Part shown: piece after piece, positions 7,176-44,036 of the stretch
Layout of the letters: the number at the start of each line of letters is the position of its first letter
Numbering within the stretch: the first letter of the stretch is position 1
Source of the DNA: a virus
Lineage: Duplodnaviria > Heunggongvirae > Uroviricota > Caudoviricetes
Virus record (IMG/VR): IMGVR_UViG_2585427593_000001
Location: 1-56,831 of that record
DNA: 56,831 nucleotides
Reading direction: 5' to 3' (one strand)
Position numbers and translations under genes: made by a program
The notes under the pieces: generated by a model
Told to the model about the DNA's origin: nothing
Seen by the model: only the letters and a program-made list of their open reading frames with translations
Database searches by the model: none

Positions 7176-8108
7176 ATGTCGAAGAAGAACACCGCAAAGA
7201 ACGCACCCGCATCTGCCGCCGAACTCGTTTCGATGGAAGAATTCTTCAACCAGGCTGCCGGCGCTGTCGCCGACATGGGCAAAGAGGCTGAAGAGATTGC
7301 TGCAGCCGAAGCCGCGGCCGAGCTCGCTGCCCAGGAAGCTGCACGCCTCGCCGCTGAAGACGCCGCTGCCCAGGCCGTGCTCGATGGTATGCAGCCTCTC
7401 GAGGACGGAACCGGCCAGGAACCGGCCACCAATGAAGATCCGGCCACCGACGGCGAACCGACTGCTCCGGTCAAGCGCGTCGAAGGCGTGCTCAAGGAAA
7501 TGAAGGCTGAGTTCGAGCCGGAAGCGAAGGAAGCCAAGAAGGTCGAAATCGTCATGTCCTTCGACGACCGCATCGCCTTCGAGAAGGCCCAGCCGGGTCT
7601 GTCCTCGAAGATGATCCCGAACCTCGAGGCCGAGCAGAAGAAGATGGCGACCATCGGTGCTGCCGGCCTGTTCCTGGCGATGGACATCGACCCTGGCTTC
7701 ATCAACCGCGAGGTCTCGACCGGCTCGAGGTTCAACGTCTACGCCCTGCAGAAGGTCAACGACCTGATCGTGGCGCTCGACGGCGGGTTCATGCAGAACG
7801 CCATCAACAAGGCGATCGTGCAGAGCCTGTTCAACTTCCGCGACGCCGGCATCCCCTTCACGGGCAACGCAGCACTTGCTGCCGCATCCGACAAGGTCAA
7901 GGCCGACCGGGCGATCACCAAGCACCTCGTTCGCCATACGGTGAGCGCCAACACCGCCTCGACCCAGAAGAGCAGCACCATGACGGCGCTGAAGACGCTG
8001 GGCATCGTCGAGAACAGCGGCACCCGCGGCAACGAGGTCTGGACCTTGACCGACACGCCGGCGACGCGCCGCCTCGAGGAAATCGTCCGGCCGAAGGCTG
8101 CTGCCTGA
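7176..8108 (+). CDS. Hypothetical protein; Ala/Glu-rich N-terminus, C-terminal domain paralogous to 10176-10775
   Basis: Phage-typical codon usage, SD GAAAGG; shared motifs YALQKV, KHLV, TQKSSTMTALKTLGIV. Confidence 0.8.
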   Translation: MSKKNTAKNAPASAAELVSMEEFFNQAAGAVADMGKEAEEIAAAEAAAELAAQEAARLAAEDAAAQAVLDGMQPLEDGTGQEPATNEDPATDGEPTAPVKRVEGVLKEMKAEFEPEAKEAKKVEIVMSFDDRIAFEKAQPGLSSKMIPNLEAEQKKMATIGAAGLFLAMDIDPGFINREVSTGSRFNVYALQKVNDLIVALDGGFMQNAINKAIVQSLFNFRDAGIPFTGNAALAAASDKVKADRAITKHLVRHTVSANTASTQKSSTMTALKTLGIVENSGTRGNEVWTLTDTPATRRLEEIVRPKAAA

Positions 8109-9391: not shown

Positions 9392-9730
9392 ATGTCCTAC
9401 GTCACCGAAGTTTTCATGAACCGTCAGATCCGCGAAGCCGCTGTCAGCCTCGACATCGTGCAAGCCGCGCAGAACCACAAGCTGCCTGCAGACAGCAAGA
9501 AGCACGTTCTGCTCGCCAAGGTTCTCAAGGACCACGCCGATCGCCTTCAGCGCCTGGTCGCCGAGCAGACGGTCATGAGCCCTGACGAATTCTTCCGGCG
9601 CGCTTTCGAACGTGTCCGCGAGATGCGGGCTGAAGCTGCACTCATCGCCACCATGCGCCGCGAGAAGCGCGAGCGTGACGCCCTCGAGCGCGAAACGGTC
9701 ATGCAGGAGATGGGTCTGATCGCCGCCTGA
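9392..9730 (+). CDS. Helical hypothetical protein
   Basis: SD GAAAGG; followed by a terminator. Confidence 0.7.
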   Translation: MSYVTEVFMNRQIREAAVSLDIVQAAQNHKLPADSKKHVLLAKVLKDHADRLQRLVAEQTVMSPDEFFRRAFERVREMRAEAALIATMRREKRERDALERETVMQEMGLIAA

Positions 9731-9878: not shown

Positions 9879-10126
9879 TGGTCGCCCCTAGGTGTGCCCT
9901 TGGGCGCGGGCGCGCCTCCCCTGCCCGCGCGCCTACGCGCCCTGGCCCTATGCGTGCATGACGCGCATATGAGCGCTCGATATCGCACGCGATAGCGTCT
10001 GGTCGACTCACAGCGCGTCACTGGCTGGCTTGGTCGCTTTCTGTGACTCGTTACTCATCTCAGCATGCGAAACGCGCTGTATGAGCTTCTATAGCGCTGC
10101 CCGTTTTCAGACATGAGCGCAAACGC

Positions 10127-10152
10127 AAAAAGCGCGCTATCTCTAGCGCGCT
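10127..10152 (-). terminator. Rho-independent terminator of the CC/GG-free gene
   Basis: AGCGCGCTA-TCTC-TAGCGCGCT with an A-run on the left (U-run on the minus strand). Confidence 0.75.
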
Positions 10153-10175
10153 TCATTCTGTTTATGAGTAGACGC

Positions 10176-10775
10176 TTATGCAGCGTCTTTTTCGTTCTCT
10201 TCGCTTTCGTCTTCGATTTCGACTTTCGCAAAGTCGATCTTGAACGCTACGCAAAGCGCTTCTGCGAGTGCTGTTAGATCGACGCTGAAAGCGTTCTTGA
10301 TATCGTGACGATGCTTGATGATATTCAGCGTCAAAAGCGCGTCTCTGCTCGTCTGTGACTGCGCTGCAATCGTCTCTGTCGTTTGAATGATGTTGCGCAC
10401 ATAAACGAGATGCTTGACGCTATCGTCAACAGTAACGTCTCGCGAAATCGATGCTTCGATCATTGCTTGCGTAAGCACTGCATCGTTGCGATAGCAGTTG
10501 ATTGCAGTGCGAAAGATTGCGTATGTGTTTTCGTTCAAGTCTTTTGCGTTCAGCGTCACAGCTTGCGAAGCAAACTTGACGACTTTCTCGCATGCATACA
10601 TTGCTCTTGTGAAGCGTTCAGCGTCGACGTTTGCGTCTGTCAGCATGTCAGCGAGCTTTTCGTTGGAAAGCATCGTAACAAGCTTGCGAAGCTTCTTTTC
10701 GTTGCTTGCGCTGCAGTTGTTCAGAAGAGCAGAGTTAAGACGTTCAGACATTGCGACTGCGAAGACGTTAGACAT
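10176..10775 (-). CDS. Hypothetical protein with no Gly, Pro or Trp, encoded by CC/GG-free DNA
   Basis: 199-aa ORF with purine-rich SD (GAAAGAGAG), its own terminator and recognisable similarity to 7176-8108. Confidence 0.85.
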   Translation of the reverse strand: MSNVFAVAMSERLNSALLNNCSASNEKKLRKLVTMLSNEKLADMLTDANVDAERFTRAMYACEKVVKFASQAVTLNAKDLNENTYAIFRTAINCYRNDAVLTQAMIEASISRDVTVDDSVKHLVYVRNIIQTTETIAAQSQTSRDALLTLNIIKHRHDIKNAFSVDLTALAEALCVAFKIDFAKVEIEDESEENEKDAA

Positions 10776-10920
10776 AGTGTTCTCTCTTTCGTGTAGAGCG
10801 TTGCGTTAGTCGAAAGCGTTGCTGATTTGTTTGTGTCGCTTTCGATGATTTGACTTTATCGAAGTCTTAGAACGGAGCAAATGTTCTGATGGGGATGCCT
10901 TCCGGACTGGCGACGCTCCG

Positions 10921-10945
10921 GTGATCCTATCCTCCTCAGCCAGCT
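10921..10945 (+). repeat. Intergenic spacer repeat (identical 25-mer at 11637-11661; 12-bp core also at 12304 and 13096)
   Basis: GTGATCCTATCCTCCTCAGCCAGCT twice; CCTATCCTCCTC four times. Confidence 0.9.
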
Positions 10946-36865: not shown

Positions 36866-39800
36866 ATGACGGCTATTCGCGTTGAACTTCAGCTGGCAGA
36901 CGGCTCCTTTACCTCGGGCATGCTCCGGGCAGGGCAGTCGCTCGCGCAGCTCCAGGCGCAGCTCGTTCGCACCAACCCTCAGCTTGCAAACGTGGCAGCG
37001 AATGGCGGAAACGTCATTCGCTCCATGACTGGCATGGACAGCTCTGCCAAGGGCTTCCTGTCCACCCTTCGCGACGTGTCGATCGTCACCGGCCTGGTGT
37101 CGATGGGATTGTCGAAGATGTCCGGCGCGGCGAACGGCTGGGTCGGTGAGATCGTCCGCATCAATGCGGAAATGGAAAAGCTGAACTTCCAGATGCGGTC
37201 GATGGCGACTTCCGCCGACCCGATGAAGGAAGCAGCCGACAACGTGAAGTATCTGCGCGAGCAGGCAACTCAGATGCCGTTCTCGCTGCGAACCATCACC
37301 TCTGGCTTCGTCAAGCTCAAGGCGACCGGCACGGACCCGATGAACGGCTCGCTGAAGGCGATCGCCGACGGCATCGCGTCGTTTGGCGGTTCTGACGAAG
37401 CCTTCAACCGCACCATTCTCGGTATTACCCAGGCGGCCGGTAAGGGCGTCCTGCAGATGGAAGAACTGCGTCAGCAGATCGGCGAATCCATGCCGAATGC
37501 GATGCAGCTGCTTGCCCGCTCGATGGGCCTGTCAGTCGGTCAGCTCGCCAAGGAGATCTCGACCGGCACGGTAGCCTCGCGCCCGGCGCTGGAGAAGCTC
37601 TACGACGAGCTTAACCGCGTCTACGGTGGCACCTCGCAGCGCATGATGCGCACCTTCTCGGGCCAGCTCACCCAGCTTCATACCAACCTGCAGAACCTTG
37701 CCACCAATGAAGGCGGCAGTGGCTTCTTCGATCAGGTGAAGGGTCAGCTCCAGGATATCAACCGGTTCCTGGCAAGCGACATGGCAAACCAGTTCGCGAC
37801 CAAGCTCGGCAACGCCTTGTCTTCGGTCGTTCAGGGTCTGCGCACGGCAATTACCACGATCTGGGAGTTCCGCGACGAAATCACCCGCGTTGGCGCCATC
37901 GTCGCCGGTGGCCTCGGCATGCTCGCACTTGCCCGCGGCATCCAGTCCCTGACTGCTGCGGTGACGGCTGCCGGCTTTGCCTGGAAGATCTTCCGGACGA
38001 ACATGGCCGAGGCTGTCTCCAACATTACGCTTGGCGTGACCGGCTTCCGGAACATGACCACGGCTTCGACCGGCCTTTCGTTCGTCCTGATGGGTATGCG
38101 TGGCGCGTTCGGAGCAATCCTGACCGGCTTCACGGCCTTTGCTCCGCTGATCGTCGGCGTTGGTGTCGCGGCTTATACGGCCGGTGAATATTTCGGCCTG
38201 TTCAAGGATCGCGTTGGTGACGCCTACGAGGAGCTGAAGAAGTTCGGCGCCGAGTCCGAAGCCATTGCCCGTAAGACGGTCGAAGCCAAGCGCAACCAGC
38301 TGCAGGAGCGCATCGCGTCCATGCAGAACGCCCGCGCGCTGGGTGGTCAGGGCTGGGACGAACAGATCGCCGCGGCTCAAAAGGAGCTTGAGCAGTTCAA
38401 CGTTGAAAGCCCGAAGTTCATCCAGGACGCCGCAAAGGCCGAAAACACCAAGAAGCTCGATGCTTACAAGCAGAGCATCCAGGACGCTGTTGCGATCCAG
38501 CAGCAGGGCTATGAGAAGCTCCAGAAGGAGCGCGACCAGGCGTTTGACGAGGATCTTGCCAAGACCGGCGAGAACGAAGAGTCGAAGGCCCAGATCACCA
38601 AGAAGTATCAGGATAAGCTGCGGGAGAACCAGAAGAACCTCTCCAAGGAGATCATCAAGGGATACGACGAGCGCCTCGACGCGCTGAACAAGTCGCTGGC
38701 GACTGCGGCTGGCTCCGAGAAGGATCTGATCCAGCAGCAGATCGCCTACGTCAACAGCCTGCGCAACCCGGAATACCAGCGCTTCCTCACCCTGGACGAC
38801 AAGACCTTCAGCGTCGATCACACCTCGACCGGTGCGAACGAGACGAAGGCTGTCGAACGCGGCAAGAAGGCGCTCGAGGAGCTTCAGGCCGATATCGCCA
38901 AGATCCAGGCGAACATGAACGGCGCATCCGGTGCTGCTGCTGAAATGGCCGAGAAGATCGCGGCCAACGACTTTGGTTCGATCAAGGAGGGCGGCGAGGA
39001 TATCGCGAGGCTCCACGATCAGCTGATGGCTGCTGCCGAGGCGAAGGAAACCCTCGACAAGGCCATGAAGGGCAACCAGAAGGCCGATCGCGATCTGGAT
39101 AATATCCAGGAGGATATTCGCGAGCGCGAAATGAAGCTCCTGGAGCGCCAGCAGGGCAGGGAGCTCAACGACGCCCAGAAGATGCGCCTGCGTCTCGACA
39201 ACGGCGGCTACTTCGCCCTCGGTCCCTACGACAACATCAAGAAGGCACTCGGCGAAGTCGTCGGCGCCATGAACGCCCAGGGTGCGGCTGCCAACCAGGT
39301 TGGCACCGTCATGCGCGAGAACACGTTCAGCAATGAGACCGTCAAGCACGTCGACACCGTCACCGATGCCATCGGCCGGCTCTCCGGCGCTATTCGGGGT
39401 GTTGGCACGTCACTGAACGGTCTGAACTTCGCCGACCTGGGCAAGGGCCTCTCCGGCACCCTTCCGATGGGTGGCAATGCCCCGAAGATCACGCAGTTCT
39501 CTGGCTCGATGCTCGACCTGATCGCCAAGGGAGAGTCGGGCGGCGACTATAACGCCACGCTGGACAACGGCGCATGGACGGGCGGTTCGCAGAACCTCGT
39601 TGGCATGACGCTGAACCAGGTCCGCGACCTGCAGCGCCAGATGCTCTCTAATCCCGCCAACCGGGCAAAGTATGACGGCAAGGGCTCTTCGGCGCTCGGC
39701 AAGTATCAGATCGTCGGTCAGACGCTGCAGGGTCTCATGGAAGAGATGGGCCTCTCCGGCGACGAGATGTTCGATGAGAAGATGCAGGACCAGATGGCGA

Positions 39801-41476
39801 TGCGTCTGCTCAATCGTCGTCTCGGCTCTGGCGAGGGCATCGGAGGTCTCCGCAAGGAATGGACCTCGCTCAAGAACGTCTCCGACGACGTGATCCAGAA
39901 CGCGCTGAATAGCGCTTCGAACGGCCCGACGCGCGAGAAGGCCGCTGGCTACGCTATGACCAGCGCGCCGGCGATGTCGGCCAGCCTCGGCCCGCTGCCG
40001 ACCTACCAGCCGACCGTGATCGACGCCCAGATCGAAAAGACGGCCGACCTTCGCAAGGAGCTCGATGAGGCCGACAAGAAGTATCAGGAGCTCGGCAAGA
40101 AGACCAACGACGCGGATCTCGCCGACTGGATCAAGCAGACCTCGACCGAAACCAAGGATCTCGGCAAGAACGCTGAAGATACCGGCAAGCGCTATGACGC
40201 TCTGGTCAAGGCAATCTCGGGCGGCAAGTTCGGCGACAGCGACGAAGACAAGAACCCCGAGGCAGCGCGCTACAAGGACGCGATTGCCGCGGCGAAGGAA
40301 TACGACGCCGTTGCCAAGGATGTCGACGAGAAGAAGAAGCTTCGCACCCAGACGGATCGCGAGACCGAAAAGCTTGAGCAGGATCGCCTCGAGCTCAACC
40401 GGCGCCTGGCTGAAGCTCAGAAGAAGGTCTCCAATCCGGACTACATCAAGGACTCGTCCGCCCTTGAGGATTTGACCACCCGTCTCGACGCCTACATCGC
40501 CAAGACCAAGGAGCTCTACGGCGAAGACAGCGATGCGTATCGCCAGGCGCTACAGACCAAGACCAACATGCTGCGCTCGCAGTCCCAGCTCGACAGCGCC
40601 GTCACCCAGACGAAGCTCGAGAAGGAACGTCGCGACACCGAAAGCACGCTGCTCACCACGACGCAGATGCGTCGGCAGGAGATGCAGCGCAAGATCGCCC
40701 TCATCGACCAGGCCACGCAGGAAGCGATTGCTGCCGGCGAGGATGAGGTCGAGGCGACCAGGCGTGGCGAAGCTCAGAAGGCGGCTATCCGTGCGCAGTA
40801 TGTGCAGGAAATGTCGCCCATGCAGAAGCAGTTCAAGGAATGGGGCGACCTGCAGTCCAACCTCGCCCAGGGATCTGCGCGCTGGATGGACTCGCTTGCG
40901 GGCGGCATCGCTGATCTCATCACTGGCACCGGTGATCTGCGCCAGACCCTTCAGGGCATCCTGAAGGACATCGTGAGCACGGGCGTCAAGTATATGATGT
41001 CCGGCATGTTCTCCGGTAAGGGCGGTGGCGCTGCTTCCGGTGGCAAGAAGGGTGCAGCCGCAGCTGGTGGCAGCAAGAAGGGCCTGGTCCCGACCGCGCA
41101 CACGGGCGGCATCATCGGCTCGAGCGCGCTTTCGCCGAAGATGGCCCACGCTGCCATGTTCGCGGGCGCTCCCAAGTTCCACACGGGCGGCATCGTCGAT
41201 AGCCTGCTGCCTTCCGAGGTTCCGATCATCGCCAAGAAGGGCGAGGGCGTCTTCACGCCTGAGCAGATGGACGCGATGGGCGGCTTCTCCCAGAGCCAGT
41301 CGATCGTCATCTCGTCGCCGATCACCGTCAACGGATCGGCCGGCTCGCCGGAACAGAACCAGGATCTCGCAAAGAAGATGGCCCGTGAATACGAGCAGTC
41401 GATGCGCGGCGTGGTCGCCGAGGAAATCCGGAAGCAGACGCGTCCGGGCAATTACATGAACCAGAGGAGCCGCTGA
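36866..41476 (+). CDS. Tape measure protein with internal lysozyme-like domain
   Basis: About 1,536 aa; GKGVLQMEELRQQIGE tape-measure motif; ESGGDYN...GKYQ...QD domain; C-terminal HTGG repeats. Confidence 0.93.
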   Translation: MTAIRVELQLADGSFTSGMLRAGQSLAQLQAQLVRTNPQLANVAANGGNVIRSMTGMDSSAKGFLSTLRDVSIVTGLVSMGLSKMSGAANGWVGEIVRINAEMEKLNFQMRSMATSADPMKEAADNVKYLREQATQMPFSLRTITSGFVKLKATGTDPMNGSLKAIADGIASFGGSDEAFNRTILGITQAAGKGVLQMEELRQQIGESMPNAMQLLARSMGLSVGQLAKEISTGTVASRPALEKLYDELNRVYGGTSQRMMRTFSGQLTQLHTNLQNLATNEGGSGFFDQVKGQLQDINRFLASDMANQFATKLGNALSSVVQGLRTAITTIWEFRDEITRVGAIVAGGLGMLALARGIQSLTAAVTAAGFAWKIFRTNMAEAVSNITLGVTGFRNMTTASTGLSFVLMGMRGAFGAILTGFTAFAPLIVGVGVAAYTAGEYFGLFKDRVGDAYEELKKFGAESEAIARKTVEAKRNQLQERIASMQNARALGGQGWDEQIAAAQKELEQFNVESPKFIQDAAKAENTKKLDAYKQSIQDAVAIQQQGYEKLQKERDQAFDEDLAKTGENEESKAQITKKYQDKLRENQKNLSKEIIKGYDERLDALNKSLATAAGSEKDLIQQQIAYVNSLRNPEYQRFLTLDDKTFSVDHTSTGANETKAVERGKKALEELQADIAKIQANMNGASGAAAEMAEKIAANDFGSIKEGGEDIARLHDQLMAAAEAKETLDKAMKGNQKADRDLDNIQEDIREREMKLLERQQGRELNDAQKMRLRLDNGGYFALGPYDNIKKALGEVVGAMNAQGAAANQVGTVMRENTFSNETVKHVDTVTDAIGRLSGAIRGVGTSLNGLNFADLGKGLSGTLPMGGNAPKITQFSGSMLDLIAKGESGGDYNATLDNGAWTGGSQNLVGMTLNQVRDLQRQMLSNPANRAKYDGKGSSALGKYQIVGQTLQGLMEEMGLSGDEMFDEKMQDQMAMRLLNRRLGSGEGIGGLRKEWTSLKNVSDDVIQNALNSASNGPTREKAAGYAMTSAPAMSASLGPLPTYQPTVIDAQIEKTADLRKELDEADKKYQELGKKTNDADLADWIKQTSTETKDLGKNAEDTGKRYDALVKAISGGKFGDSDEDKNPEAARYKDAIAAAKEYDAVAKDVDEKKKLRTQTDRETEKLEQDRLELNRRLAEAQKKVSNPDYIKDSSALEDLTTRLDAYIAKTKELYGEDSDAYRQALQTKTNMLRSQSQLDSAVTQTKLEKERRDTESTLLTTTQMRRQEMQRKIALIDQATQEAIAAGEDEVEATRRGEAQKAAIRAQYVQEMSPMQKQFKEWGDLQSNLAQGSARWMDSLAGGIADLITGTGDLRQTLQGILKDIVSTGVKYMMSGMFSGKGGGAASGGKKGAAAAGGSKKGLVPTAHTGGIIGSSALSPKMAHAAMFAGAPKFHTGGIVDSLLPSEVPIIAKKGEGVFTPEQMDAMGGFSQSQSIVISSPITVNGSAGSPEQNQDLAKKMAREYEQSMRGVVAEEIRKQTRPGNYMNQRSR

Positions 41477-41899: not shown

Positions 41900-42607
41900 A
41901 TGTCCGTTCAGTCTGAAGCTCAGTCGCTTTCGCCGTCTGCCATCATCTCGCTGTTCACCATCGACGCTTCGCCGATGGGCGGCCCGCTGATGTATTTCGT
42001 GCAGGGCTCGGAGAACGACGGCCCGGTCGTCTACAACGGCATTGAATACCAGCCGGTCGACGTTCAGTTCGAAGGGCTGGAAACGTCCGGCGCCGGCGCG
42101 CTGCCGCAGCCGAAGATTCGCATCTCCAACGTCGACGGCATGGCCCAGGCCCTGGTCTCGACCTATGGCGAGCTGCTCGGCTGCACGCTCTACCGTGTTC
42201 GCACCTACAAGCGCTTCCTCGACTACCAGCCCGACGCCGACCCCGAAGCTTTCTATGGCCCCGATATCTTCCGCTTTGAGCGCAAGACCTCGGAAAACGG
42301 CGTCTTCATCGAGTGGGATCTGTCTGCGTCGATCGACCAGGAAGGCAAGATGCTGCCTGGCCGCACGGTCATCCGCAACACCTGCCTGTGGCGCTACCGC
42401 TACTTCAACACCCTGACCGGCACCTTCGACTATTCCAAGGCGCAGTGCCCTTACACGGGCAACCGATATTTCGACATCAACGATGCGCCGGTCAGCGACC
42501 CGTCCAAGGACGTGCCGTCGCGCCGTCTCAACTGCTGCCGCACCCGCTTTGGCCGCGGCAATCCGCTGCCCTTCGGCGGCTTCCCTGGCGTCCAGAGGAT
42601 CTCCTAA
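41900..42607 (+). CDS. Tail tip protein (lambda gpL-like)
   Basis: PKIRISNVDG; CLWRY...CPYTG...CCRTRFG...LPFGGFPG. Confidence 0.9.
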   Translation: MSVQSEAQSLSPSAIISLFTIDASPMGGPLMYFVQGSENDGPVVYNGIEYQPVDVQFEGLETSGAGALPQPKIRISNVDGMAQALVSTYGELLGCTLYRVRTYKRFLDYQPDADPEAFYGPDIFRFERKTSENGVFIEWDLSASIDQEGKMLPGRTVIRNTCLWRYRYFNTLTGTFDYSKAQCPYTGNRYFDINDAPVSDPSKDVPSRRLNCCRTRFGRGNPLPFGGFPGVQRIS

Positions 42608-43390
42608 ATGATGAAGTTTGCACTCGCTTTCGAGGATGCGAAGGCTCACGCGCGTCGGGTTTATCCCGAGGAAAGCTGCGGCCTGATCGTCGGTGGCAAG
42701 TATATCGCCTGCGAGAACGTCGCGGCTGACCCGACCAATCATGTCGATGATCCGAACTGCTCCTGCCGCAGGTGCTCTTTCGAGATCTCGCCGGCCGTCT
42801 ACGTCAGCCACGGCGACAACATCGAAATGGTCGTGCATTCGCACCCGGATGGCCCCTTCTATCCGTCGAAGGCCGACATGGAATGCCAGGTCCAGACCGG
42901 CAAGCCCTGGGCGATCATCACCCTCGACGAGGAACGCGTTGCTGAAAAGCCGGTGATCTGGGGTGGCGACATCCCCGAACTGCTCGGCCGTCAGTTCATG
43001 CACGGCGTCACCGACTGCTATGCGGTCATCAAGGACGCCTACGCGCTCGGCAAGGACGCGCTCGAAAAGCAGGGCATTCCCGGCTGGCCTTACGATCCGA
43101 TCATTCTGCCTGAGTTCCCGCGCAGCGATGCGTGGTGGGAAGGCGGCGAGGATCTCTACATCGATAATTTCGCCAAGGCCGGCTTCGTGGAGACCACGGA
43201 CACGCCGCAGCCCGGCGATGTCTTCCTGATGAAGATCCGCTCCTCGAAGGAGAACCACGGCGGGCTCCTCGTCGGTAACGACCTCATCGTCCATCACCTG
43301 CCGTCGCGCATGTCGCGCCGCGAACCTGCCGGTCTCTGGGGTCGGCAGGCGACGCGCTGGCTTCGCTACAAGGGGAACGCCGATGCGTAA
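42608..43390 (+). CDS. Tail tip assembly protein (lambda gpK-like, JAB and NlpC/P60)
   Basis: EESCG, VHSHPDG..PS..D, DCY...HGG. Confidence 0.9.
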   Translation: MMKFALAFEDAKAHARRVYPEESCGLIVGGKYIACENVAADPTNHVDDPNCSCRRCSFEISPAVYVSHGDNIEMVVHSHPDGPFYPSKADMECQVQTGKPWAIITLDEERVAEKPVIWGGDIPELLGRQFMHGVTDCYAVIKDAYALGKDALEKQGIPGWPYDPIILPEFPRSDAWWEGGEDLYIDNFAKAGFVETTDTPQPGDVFLMKIRSSKENHGGLLVGNDLIVHHLPSRMSRREPAGLWGRQATRWLRYKGNADA

Positions 43391-44036
43391 GGTCATCCTG
43401 CACGGTTCCCTCGGCGACAAGTATGGCAAGGAATTCAGTCTCGACGTGCGCACGGCCGGCGAGGCTGTCCGCGCGCTCGCGGCCAACTTCCCGATGTTCA
43501 TGAAGGATCTGCGCGAAGGCGCCTGGCATGTCGTGCGGGGCAAGAAGGTCGATAGCGGTCTTTCGCTCGATGAAACCCAGATCAGCGGTTTTCGCCTGGG
43601 CAAGGGCGATCTCCACATCGCGCCCTTCATCGCTGGCTCCAAGCGGGGCGGGCTGCTGAAGGTCGTTCTCGGCGTCGTGCTGATCGGCGCAGCATTCGCA
43701 TTCACGGGCGGGGCGCTGGCGACCGCTGTCGGCGCCGGCTCTGCGATGGGCTCTCTTGGCATCACCGGCACCCAGGTTGCGCTCTTTGGCGCGGCAGTGG
43801 CGCTTGCGGGCGTCTCCTCGCTGCTCTCGCCCGAAGAGAAGGCCAAGGAAGAGGACGGCTCTCAGTCGTTCACGATGGCCGGGCCTGCCAACACCTCCGA
43901 CCAGGGCGCTCCGGTCCCGCTTGTCTACGGCGAGGTCATCACGGGCGGCGTCCTGATTTCGGGCGGCATCGACATCGAGCAGATCGCTGTCACCGGCGAC
44001 GGTGGTGGATCTGTCGGCAGCGGAGGCAAGAAGTGA
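43383..44036 (+). CDS. Tail assembly protein (lambda gpI-like)
   Basis: VILHGSLG...QGAPVPLVYGE. Confidence 0.9.
   Translation: MRKVILHGSLGDKYGKEFSLDVRTAGEAVRALAANFPMFMKDLREGAWHVVRGKKVDSGLSLDETQISGFRLGKGDLHIAPFIAGSKRGGLLKVVLGVVLIGAAFAFTGGALATAVGAGSAMGSLGITGTQVALFGAAVALAGVSSLLSPEEKAKEEDGSQSFTMAGPANTSDQGAPVPLVYGEVITGGVLISGGIDIEQIAVTGDGGGSVGSGGKK

Follow-up and report, generated by a model that had tools for sequence, protein, structure and literature searches.

A transcription unit nearly devoid of CC and GG in a Rhizobium phage-plasmid encodes a predicted winged-helix protein lacking glycine, proline and tryptophan

In phage T5 the first-step-transfer DNA carries no EcoRI sites, and phage T7 makes Ocr (gene 0.3) before its type I sites enter the cell, T7 entry being a transcription-driven process that brings in the leading 850 bp first. 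At the RNA level, toxin-site-free transcripts are represented by mRNAs that lack the MazF site and by the ACA-less mRNAs engineered for single-protein production. Very short motifs are read by the nickase Nt.CviPII (CCD), by CviJI (RGCY), through the type I-F PAM (CC) and by CmdT, which acts at GA, and since enzymes reading 2-3 nt exist, a factor that reads CC or GG is biochemically plausible; we know of no such short-motif reader in the Rhizobiaceae or in the phage family considered here. A defence that acts while DNA is being injected is SNIPE, a GIY-YIG nuclease anchored in the membrane, which according to a preprint (bioRxiv 10.1101/2025.11.03.685801) cuts siphovirus DNA as it enters; that work was done with lambda in E. 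coli.

The DNA analyzed here (the window) is a 56,831-nucleotide stretch whose source genome is a 120.8-kb Rhizobium phage-plasmid. A sequence-only reading of the window had reported that positions 10103-10873 contain no CC and one GG where 80-90 would be expected, and our recount agrees, giving 0 CC and a single GG, at 10665-10666, against ~85; the base composition of these 771 bp (47% GC) predicts 38 CC and 47 GG. Genome-wide, CC or GG occurs once per 7.2 bp, with 16,807 occurrences outside the island. The two CC/GG-free gaps of the island span 564 and 209 bp, and the next longest gap is 74 bp, in the window and in the whole genome alike. The gap scan, which answers a whole-genome check proposed in that reading, thus found no second island: such a stretch occurs only once in the 120.8 kb, each genome has one island, and at the CC/GG density of the genome the probability of the gap arising by chance is ~e^-78. 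In a genome scan, TA, which is scarce throughout the genome, was the one other dinucleotide class with a comparable gap. The GC content of the island is ~10 points below that of its surroundings; CG and GC are its most strongly enriched dinucleotides (~1.75-fold), and AA, GA, AG, TC and TT are mildly enriched. In 8.5 kb of diverse islands, CC was found twice and GG once. The features of the locus are as follows.

10102..10873, minus strand: CC/GG-free island of 772 bp with 0 CC and 1 GG; its right edge is sharp at 10874.
10875..10880, minus strand: predicted -35 hexamer, TTGCTC, from an upstream alignment of 13 relatives; the flank's first CC lies across its 3′ end.
10853..10858, minus strand: predicted -10 hexamer, TAAAGT, after a 16-bp spacer and within the conserved block TCTAAGACTTCGA-TAAAGT; the putative transcription start lies near 10846.
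10810..10845, minus strand: 5′-terminal mRNA stem-loop with a 9-bp stem (TCGAAAGCG / CGCTTTCGA) and an 18-nt loop.
10783..10793, minus strand: purine-rich ribosome-binding region GAAAGAGAGAA, without GG, from sequence and alignment.
10176..10775, minus strand: coding sequence of 199 aa, whose product has a helical domain at the N terminus, a winged-helix domain over residues ~76-181 and an acidic tail.
10117..10154, minus strand: intrinsic terminator, an 11-bp stem of alternating G and C followed by a T run.
9947..10101, no strand assigned: partly depleted zone past the terminator, with three CC/GG sites in 155 bp.
10874..10945, no strand assigned: GG/CC-rich conserved element just outside the island, with GGGGATGCC at 10891-10899 and CCTATCCTCCTC at 10926-10937.
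7176..8108, plus strand: paralog of 310 aa with ordinary composition, homologous to the purged protein in its C-terminal domain and located within the putative terminal repeat.

The island contains the promoter spacer, the -10 hexamer, the 5′ UTR, the coding sequence and the terminator. The earlier description of leader, coding sequence and terminator as free of CC and GG therefore holds, but the island begins near -30 of the predicted promoter and not at an arbitrary position in the leader; the terminator stem of alternating G and C was also recovered, at 10129-10154, with GCGCGC forming part of it. A TTGnnn-16-TAAAGT arrangement is conserved upstream of the conserved 5′ hairpin and is unlike the phage's own promoter/operator family, which would fit a host sigma-70-type promoter, although a strict promoter-consensus scan did not list the predicted -10. 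The 5′ stem-loop has a fold z of -2.9, and its stem is maintained by compensatory changes in four relatives (L012, L011, L017 and L021). Since the ribosome-binding region has no GG, the Shine-Dalgarno core is missing. In most relatives the purged stretch extends from 97-116 bp upstream of the ATG to 55-80 bp past the stop; in some it passes terminator-like sites, and in V1VFA-S it runs ~195 bp beyond such a site. The GG/CC-rich element at 10874..10945 is conserved even in the 41%-GC relative L011, and it would lie between the promoter and the physical DNA end. An Rfam search returned no RNA family around the island.

The 199-aa product contains no Gly, Pro or Trp (P = 1.6e-12 at the frequencies of the phage's other genes). 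When the same protein was recoded with the phage's codon usage, 56 ± 5 CC/GG were obtained, with a minimum of 37 in 20,000 trials, compared to the one observed; the constraint is therefore on nucleic acid, DNA or RNA, and not on the protein. The sequence-only reading had likewise placed it outside the protein, and neither the junctions between codons nor the 5′ leader or terminator contain CC or GG. An AlphaFold model of the protein (pLDDT 91) predicts an N-terminal helical part and a winged-helix domain, a three-helix bundle with a beta-hairpin wing, and in a VIA-wide structure search residues 76-181 aligned with many winged-helix domains (kleisin C-terminal domain, ORC, MarR, histone H5) at Z 7-8.3, a generic fold match. 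No specific winged-helix family could be assigned: Pfam and PHROGs gave no credible match for this protein, for the island's neighbours or for the second purged genes described below, Foldseek found nothing in the PDB at E <= 0.001 and only the protein's own family and the paralog in AFDB, and an Atlas feature search gave sub-threshold leads alone. Across 28 homolog sequences 31 columns are invariant, a pattern that points to strong purifying selection. The model thus suggests that a folded helical and winged-helix protein can be made from 17 amino acids. The gene at 7176, previously suspected to be a paralog that uses CC and GG freely, is related to the purged protein by hhalign (probability 86%, E 5.5e-6) and has an ordinary composition, with 146 CC/GG and 33 Gly/Pro/Trp.

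The purge is shared by relatives. The CC/GG-free lengths are 851 bp in B1VFA, 1279 bp in V1VFA-S and 1334 bp in pLM21S1, and relatives at 25-55% protein identity, in genomes of 41-63% GC, have 690-840 bp free of CC/GG. Gly, Pro and Trp are all absent in 36 of 44 close homologs and in 34 of 47 cluster representatives. At 20-65% of identical residues the codons are different, and therefore much synonymous change has taken place. The syntenic position of the unit is constant: five sequenced phages or plasmids share it, as do more than 15 relatives, metagenomic or genomic, that were sampled independently. Both the depletion and the absence of the three amino acids are thus kept across syntenic relatives despite heavy synonymous turnover, as an ortholog comparison proposed earlier was meant to reveal, and these alignments show that the trait is old and actively kept in syntenic relatives down to 25% identity, a few lineages having lost it partly or wholly. 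Additional purged genes, of 86 and 101 aa, lie inside the islands of V1VFA-S and pLM21S1, and the partly depleted zone at 9947..10101 may be a remnant of the second gene that these two still carry; in L011 a second, convergent unit is purged too. A foreign insert, a chimeric contig or chance, which the lower GC of the island relative to its flanks might bring to mind, is refuted by the conserved synteny in independent samples, and the gap probability of ~e^-78 speaks against it as well. We also considered a horizontally acquired island and rejected it, as the position is the same in all relatives examined and not patchy.

The lineages in which the constraint has lapsed, among them L019, L061, L070, L071 and those like G001, are natural controls together with the never-purged paralog. 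In L070 and L019, CC and GG return at synonymous sites while the protein is still poor in Gly, Pro and Trp. In L019 the sense-strand CC has come back (28) but GG has not (2; p = 0.0006 vs genome rates), an asymmetry that the independent lineages L070 (CC/GG 40/19) and L071 (7/9), which we count as symmetric, do not reproduce. The asymmetry is also significant in L016, which looks like a recombinant of the same allele as L019, and as a clue to the reader it is suggestive only. A relaxed complete genome, G001, retains the synteny, the terminase and the upstream element unchanged, so that no evident alteration of its gene content or its ends accounts for the loss. Compared with the purged G000, G002, G003 and pRlX6 in a search for a phage-encoded reader, it lacks none of the conserved genes. 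Its RecA-like gene is unusually divergent (48% vs 66-71%), with no obvious tie to the trait.

These data bear on mutation pressure, in which local hypermutation, for instance the deamination of CC that accompanies transcription where single strands are exposed, would keep eroding CC/GG in a highly transcribed unit. The island's lower GC, its mild enrichment in AA, GA, AG, TC and TT and limits that roughly match the transcribed DNA are what such a process might leave. However, CG and GC, rather than the C-to-T products TC/CT/TT and GA/AG/AA, are the most enriched, Trp codons would become stop codons, the protein is under strong purifying selection (31 invariant columns in 28 sequences), and the quick regain of CC/GG at synonymous sites in L070 and L019 is as relaxed selection predicts, so that we regard mutation pressure as highly improbable.

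The coincidence of the island with the predicted transcript, from ~-30 to just past the terminator and not an arbitrary length of DNA, also raises the possibility of immunity at the RNA level, whereby GG and CC would have to be missing from the transcript so that the mRNA of this regulator survives one or two ribonucleases or RNA-modifying toxins of dinucleotide-scale specificity, such as HEPN RNases or mRNA ADP-ribosyltransferases, acting during infection or in the lysogen. CmdT ADP-ribosylates mRNA at GA, and particular dinucleotides are favoured by some of the Csx1 and Cas13 enzymes. The mRNA would have a protective 5′ hairpin and a strong terminator and gives up GG even in its ribosome-binding region; the phage carries tRNA genes and encodes the RNA ligase RtcB, both typical marks of a conflict over RNA cleavage; and the L019 asymmetry hints at two separable, strand-specific constraints. 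Nevertheless, CC and GG are purged equally in nearly all lineages, which would require two readers or transcription of both strands, the asymmetry is not repeated in the relaxed L070 and L071, the island passes terminator-like sites in some relatives, and we know of no RNase with GG or CC specificity in these hosts. Taken together, an origin at the RNA level appears unlikely.

A generalist avoidance of restriction was examined through the palindromes of the islands. Dropping a dinucleotide would remove at one stroke the many CC...GG and GG...CC sites of the enzymes of GC-rich hosts from a gene that has to act ahead of any protection, and 6 of the 8 all-G/C palindromic hexamers do contain CC or GG by enumeration. 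Site avoidance does shape the evolution of this family: none of the seven complete genomes contains GTAC, against 114-177 expected, and the single 6-mers CAGCTG, GCATGC and GACGTC are missing in single lineages. Among the 4-mers of the islands none falls further below expectation than the palindromes AGCT and GTAC, and there are 173 palindromic 6-mers vs 213 expected. However, the depletion of palindromes as a class is weak and not significant (p = 0.15), and the islands are rich in GCGC (135), CGCG (97), TCGA and TGCA, so the restriction-site candidate of the earlier reading does not find support as general site avoidance. Furthermore, total loss in every context, including non-palindromic ones, exceeds the need of any set of 4-8 bp sites, and relatives of 41-45% GC, in whose hosts other enzymes would be expected, retain the purge. 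Restriction avoidance of this kind is thus quite improbable. A strict link between GTAC avoidance and the CC/GG purge was rejected, because L011 and L059 are purged yet have GTAC while G001 is relaxed yet lacks it.

Two other candidates proposed from the sequence fared no better. AAG is the type I-E PAM and CC the type I-F PAM; AAG is the most over-represented trinucleotide of the islands, and a PAM-free gene alone cannot shield a genome with 16,807 CC/GG, and escape from CRISPR thus finds no support. Nor does modification of bases by phage-encoded enzymes: PGAP annotates neither a methyltransferase nor a known hypermodification gene in pRlX6, and a paper reports none in pLM21S1.

The genomic setting of the unit suggests a further explanation, in which the gene would encode the immunity or maintenance regulator of the plasmid-prophage and would have to stay transcribed while a DNA-binding roadblock nucleating on CC/GG silences the rest. 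The unit is oriented against almost all other genes and adjoins partition genes and anti-defence genes (Acb2/Tad1), its product is a predicted winged-helix protein, ~17 palindromic operators (GTAAGTAAG...CTTACTTAC) are dispersed in the genome and need a repressor, and a symmetric double-stranded-DNA roadblock would explain both the strand symmetry and the transcription-unit limits. On the other hand, ParA, ParB, RepC and other maintenance genes, which the prophage has to express as well, carry CC/GG at the normal level, the host genome, at ~61% GC, would be silenced too, and the dispersed operator is absent from the unit's own promoter. To our knowledge there is no silencer with CC/GG specificity, and we consider this explanation very unlikely.

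The position of the unit relative to the genome ends was approached through the published terminal repeats, which are 3,605 bp in B1VFA and 3,939 bp in V1VFA-S, the latter size coming from coverage only. Windows of the repeat size in B1VFA were mapped onto V1VFA-S by alignment, assuming homologous repeat boundaries. Among 98,837 evaluable windows (~19% were not evaluable), a single location maps to 3,939 ± 1 bp in V1VFA-S; the fitting windows start at 39,639-39,809 and end at 43,243-43,413 in B1VFA, where the island occupies 42,408-43,259 and the -35 hexamer 43,260-43,265. These windows end 0-154 bp beyond the promoter edge of the island, with a 1-bp discrepancy (335 vs 334). By inference from published sizes and alignment, the promoter would therefore be no more than ~150 bp away from an end of the DNA molecule in the virion, and it would read inward from there. 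No repeated motif was found at the predicted left boundary of the repeat. The start of the B1VFA record was rejected as a physical end because it is intergenic within nucleotide-metabolism genes and looks arbitrary, and the 'terminal repeats' of IMG/VR contigs were rejected as true ends because they are 95- or 127-bp assembly overlaps. A constraint on the first-injected DNA had been among the earlier candidates; the published repeat sizes fit, indirectly, a DNA end beside the unit, while the order of entry is a proposal.

Our best reading, to which we give a probability of about 0.4, is that the unit is a first-entering gene of the T7/T5 type that avoids a dinucleotide-reading factor. It would be a self-contained immediate-early unit, consisting of a host-type promoter, a 5′ hairpin, a leader without a Shine-Dalgarno sequence, the winged-helix gene and a terminator, placed at the extreme, inner-facing end of a ~3.6-kb direct terminal repeat. 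Its DNA would enter the cell first and be transcribed and translated while a factor acting at CC/GG steps is still active, so that selection would have stripped the unit of every CC and GG and, as the cost, of Gly, Pro and Trp and of its Shine-Dalgarno core. Exposure of the remaining genome, with its one CC/GG per 7 bp, would follow only on the action of the winged-helix product, which in some relatives is joined by a second small protein. Our data show the purge, its nucleic-acid level, age and maintenance, the anatomy of the unit and the fold class of the product; the existence and nature of the CC/GG reader and the role of the protein are what we infer. We count as support the conserved unit limits, the promoter and the covarying 5′ hairpin, the purging of second genes inside the island, the GTAC avoidance, which is target avoidance elsewhere in the family, and the precedent that SNIPE offers for attack on siphovirus DNA during injection. 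The overrun in V1VFA-S and the purged second unit of L011 are not predicted by a simple picture in which only the first 0.9 kb matters, and the relaxed G001, with its unchanged synteny, terminase and upstream element, also counts against this reading.

An early host-destroying nuclease is unlikely to be the reader because these elements are temperate plasmid-prophages, and we know of no factor in these hosts that recognizes CC/GG steps by themselves on DNA, nor did one emerge from our analysis. More tentatively still, we propose that a host- or phage-encoded factor with true CC/GG dinucleotide specificity may act at the start of infection and that a 'stealth' leading-end gene without targets may answer it across the alphaproteobacterial phage-plasmid superfamily. 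If so, the reader would be a new class of immunity or takeover mechanism, and the gene a natural case of proteome-level recoding driven by nucleic-acid targeting. A limited literature search found no description of a CC/GG-free gene or of a Gly/Pro/Trp-free phage protein, and as far as that search shows, no working gene with so old and complete a loss of one dinucleotide has been reported. The purge marks a specific, uncharacterized molecular conflict, and synonymous restoration of CC and GG offers an experimental handle on it.

Compared with the known systems, the locus resembles SNIPE in its proposed timing, since DNA entry is when a leading-end gene would need to be untouchable; sequence specificity is not apparent in the parts of the SNIPE description considered here, and SNIPE is not known from these hosts. 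It differs from the targets of known short-motif readers in that PAM avoidance in one gene leaves the genome unprotected. As in the MazF-site-free mRNAs, the transcript would lack a cleavage word, and the limits of the purge coincide with the predicted mRNA; those cases, however, are strand-specific and concern words of 3-7 nt, whereas here both CC and GG are missing. It shares with restriction-site avoidance the strand-symmetric, selected removal of a short word across relatives, as seen for GTAC (0 vs ~160) in the same genomes, but the removal is confined to a single transcription unit and does not extend over the genome, the word has 2 bp and is not a known recognition site, and other GC palindromes are abundant in the island. 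The likeness to T5 and T7 would lie in genes with host promoters at or in the terminal repeat that are expressed early and are free of threatening sites, the terminal position here being deduced. In contrast to T5 and T7, the elements are temperate plasmid-prophages for which a two-step or transcription-driven entry is only proposed, the product has no sequence or fold relation to T5 A1/A2 or Ocr, and the avoided word is a dinucleotide in all contexts instead of a 6-bp site, with the proteome reshaped and no Shine-Dalgarno core. If the leading-end reading is right, the T5/T7 principle of 'target-free gene first' would extend to temperate phage-plasmids of soil bacteria, and the locus would show how far that principle can reshape a protein.

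Positions 10103-10873 of the window had been proposed, from the sequence alone, to form a unit purged of CC and GG, and our recount bore this out: the stretch contains no CC and one GG (at 10665), whereas 38 CC and 47 GG would be expected from base composition. The CC/GG-free gaps in this island measure 564 and 209 bp, and nothing comparable exists elsewhere in the 120,831-bp genome, where the next longest gap is 74 bp and the overall density is one CC/GG per 7.2 bp. CG and GC are approximately 1.75-fold enriched in the island, indicating that G and C are retained but never doubled. As the sequence-only reading also claimed, the 199-aa product contains no Gly, Pro or Trp (P = 1.6e-12, given the frequencies in the phage's other genes). 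When the codons of this protein were redrawn from phage codon usage in a synonymous recoding test (20,000 trials), the CDS acquired 56 ± 5 CC/GG (minimum 37) compared to the 1 observed. The depletion is therefore imposed on the nucleic acid rather than the protein, as had been argued, and exceeds the effect of the odd protein composition. This purge is highly non-random, and a limited literature search found no published description of it.

Features of the window
10103-10873, minus-strand gene: CC/GG-purged island
10176-10775, minus strand: CDS of the 199-aa protein
7176-8108: gene of a 310-aa paralog
13794, 16614, 18500, 23101, 25142, 27963, 28933, 35149, 41854, 51052, 53000 and others: copies of an operator-like palindrome
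10926, 11642, 12304, 13096, plus strand: copies of CCTATCCTCCTC

The AlphaFold model of the 199-aa protein is confident (pLDDT 91): a helical domain at the N terminus is joined by a winged-helix domain (residues ~76-181) that gives only generic matches to many winged-helix domains (Z 7-8). The gene at 7176 was confirmed as a paralog that uses Gly, Pro and CC/GG freely (hhalign probability 86%, E 5.5e-6; structural match to the purged protein in AFDB). Its composition is ordinary, with 146 CC/GG, 19 Gly, 13 Pro and 1 Trp, and in the hhalign alignment its Gly and Pro positions are Asn, Asp, His, Ala or Val in the purged protein.

The source of the window is a ~120-kb siphovirus/plasmid-prophage of Rhizobium, the family of which carries ParA/ParB/RepC, its own DnaE, RecA, two ligases, RtcB, an NAD salvage pair, a sigma factor and tRNAs. 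An ortholog lies at the same position in all five named relatives (RHph_X66, B1VFA, V1VFA-S, plasmid pRlX6 and Sinorhizobium pLM21S1), with CC/GG-free stretches of 475+383, 432+336, 851, 1279 and 1334 bp; the islands of V1VFA-S and pLM21S1 additionally contain a small gene (86 or 101 aa) that is unrelated to the first and also lacks Gly, Pro and Trp. Islands of 690-820 bp occur in metagenomic and genomic relatives at 44-55% identity, and islands of 838, 839 and 1196 bp in those at 25-30% identity, which include genomes of 41% and 45% GC. Gly, Pro and Trp are wholly absent from 36 of 44 near homologs and from 34 of 47 representatives of 50%-identity clusters. Where purged orthologs share a residue, 20-65% of the codons differ, and each of the ten invariant residue columns is encoded by at least two codons, indicating repeated turnover of the sequence under the purge. 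The depletion has thus persisted while the sequence diverged, and these comparisons indicate that it is conserved, old and actively maintained. Further convergent-operon genes are CC/GG-free or nearly so in some relatives (locus L011, 7084-7551; locus L009, 8211-8609), examples being a 99-aa gene and the ortholog of window 9392-9730, which itself has about half of the expected CC/GG.

In most relatives the free zone begins 97-116 bp 5′ of the ATG and stops 55-80 bp past the stop codon. The aligned upstream regions contain a predicted host-type promoter (conserved TTGnnn, 16-bp spacer, TAAAGT), followed by a 5′-terminal hairpin maintained by compensatory changes and a purine-rich ribosome-binding region without GG; 3′ of the stop lies a strong predicted terminator whose stem of alternating G and C is as first described. 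The first CC of the flank lies at the 3′ edge of the predicted -35 hexamer, and a conserved GG/CC-rich element (GGCATCCCC) lies directly outside the island, even in the 41%-GC relative. The island therefore coincides with the predicted transcription unit, its limits being about -30 and a point just beyond the terminator. Three observations qualify this match: islands run 150-200 bp further in some relatives, window 9947-10100 is partly depleted, and in L011 the convergent strand carries another purged unit. The first copy of CCTATCCTCCTC belongs to the conserved element abutting the island, and the four copies precede a cassette-like array of small membrane-protein genes. The operator-like palindrome (GTAAGTAAG, 2-4 nt, CTTACTTAC) occurs in ~17 copies of confirmed sequence at gene boundaries and was not found at the purged unit's promoter. 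A sigma-70-family factor is annotated in B1VFA (98760-99404, B1VFA_132) and V1VFA-S (79869-80513); a phage-encoded sigma factor is in keeping with an immediate-early unit read from a host promoter and phage-specific promoters in other places. In distant relatives, the divergent gene set opposite the purged unit holds an Acb2/Tad1-type sponge gene (anti-CBASS/anti-Thoeris), which makes the neighbourhood resemble an anti-defence region.

Acb2/Tad1-type sponge gene regions at loci of relatives
L009 4329-4700
L012 4189-4620
L057 5093-5419
L059 4945-5475

Some lineages have lost the purge. In the relative genome G001 (locus L019), the CDS contains ~30 CC/GG and the protein three Pro. Locus L016, encoding a protein 97% identical to the window's gene product, has ten CC/GG; since seven of these coincide with L019 positions, its gene is probably a recombinant. 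In L070 the CC/GG count is normal, yet the protein contains just 2 Gly and 2 Pro; L071 falls in between, L061 and L072 are entirely ordinary, and a chromosomal fragment of the gene in R. ruizarguesonis is decaying. These natural losses show that the odd composition is dispensable for the protein and that the constraint can lapse. In L070 (2231-2995) the gene adjoins a staphylococcal-nuclease-like gene and an Xre/ParS antitoxin-like gene, a context different from that of the phage-plasmids. Comparison of G001 with four purged complete genomes found no gene missing from G001 but conserved in the others, and identified no phage-encoded CC/GG reader; only a RecA-like gene was unusually divergent in G001. 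This gene (75855-77042 of the whole genome, beyond the window) shows 48% identity in G001 compared to 71% and 66% in the more distant G002 and G003, which suggests an allele replacement.

The original inference, that the constraint acts on nucleic acid and lets the unit evade something reading CC/GG, is supported; the specific candidates offered for it mostly lack support. General restriction avoidance is unlikely, given that GCGC, CGCG, TCGA and TGCA are abundant in the islands and that there is no significant depletion of palindromes as a class. Self-modification by the phage is not supported either, as the pRlX6 annotation contains no methyltransferase or known hypermodification gene; a paper likewise reports none in pLM21S1. 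CC is the type I-F CRISPR PAM, but the 16,807 CC/GG elsewhere in the genome tend to speak against PAM avoidance, as does the over-representation in the islands of AAG, a type I-E PAM. If the transcript rather than the DNA had to be CC/GG-free, this would agree with the fit of the island limits to the predicted transcript, with the RtcB carried by the phage and with the regain of CC but not GG in L019 (p = 0.0006); however, this asymmetry is absent in L070 and L071, and we regard RNA-level reading as rather unlikely. Avoidance of targets in DNA, as a habit of the family, is supported by GTAC, which is absent from six of seven complete genomes (G000, the window's own, G001, G002, G003, pRlX6, B1VFA and V1VFA-S), with 2 sites in pRlX6, against 114-177 expected; single lineages also lack single hexamers (CAGCTG, GCATGC or GACGTC). 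GTAC is also absent from most high-GC relatives and present in low-GC L011 and L059, and it is likewise scarce in two 12-kb stretches of R. ruizarguesonis DNA (1-2 versus 15 expected).

According to the genome announcement, the ends are fixed and carry direct terminal repeats, 3,605 bp long in B1VFA and 3,939 bp in V1VFA-S (the latter from coverage). These differ by 334 bp, and the main gene in V1VFA-S is shifted by exactly 334 bp owing to the extra purged gene. Using an alignment of both complete genomes, we mapped each 3,605-bp window of B1VFA to V1VFA-S. Of the 98,837 windows that could be evaluated, a mapped length of 3,939 ± 1 bp was obtained solely for starts at 39,639-39,809 and ends at 43,243-43,413. 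The best-fitting windows gave a length difference of 335 compared to the published 334, and the next nearest class, in structural genes, was 7-17 bp off.

Features of B1VFA
42,408-43,259: island
43,260-43,265: predicted -35

The repeat thus most likely begins in a 1.5-kb non-coding gap and continues through the paralog and two small genes to the purged unit, the promoter of which would read inward from a point no more than 150 bp from the right physical end. In lambda, the last DNA packaged exits first. If packaging has the same direction as the terminase and structural genes, and the last-packaged DNA leaves first, the purged unit would be the first DNA into the cell. The earlier suggestion of a constraint on first-injected DNA gains indirect support in this way: the published repeat sizes would place the unit at an end, and the order of entry is assumed.

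The closest parallels are found in T5, with its first-step-transfer DNA, and at the leading end of T7, which carries gene 0.3; in both, host-promoter genes at the entering end lack dangerous sites. The purged unit differs from these in avoiding a two-letter word in every context, an avoidance that reshapes the protein and removes the Shine-Dalgarno core. We know of no reader of a two-letter CC/GG word in such a phage/host setting, and there is a substantial chance that it would be a new kind of factor. The SNIPE preprint (bioRxiv 10.1101/2025.11.03.685801) shows that siphovirus DNA can be cut while it is injected. By analogy with T5 and T7, we file the purge as putative target-site avoidance in first-entering DNA, in a new form.
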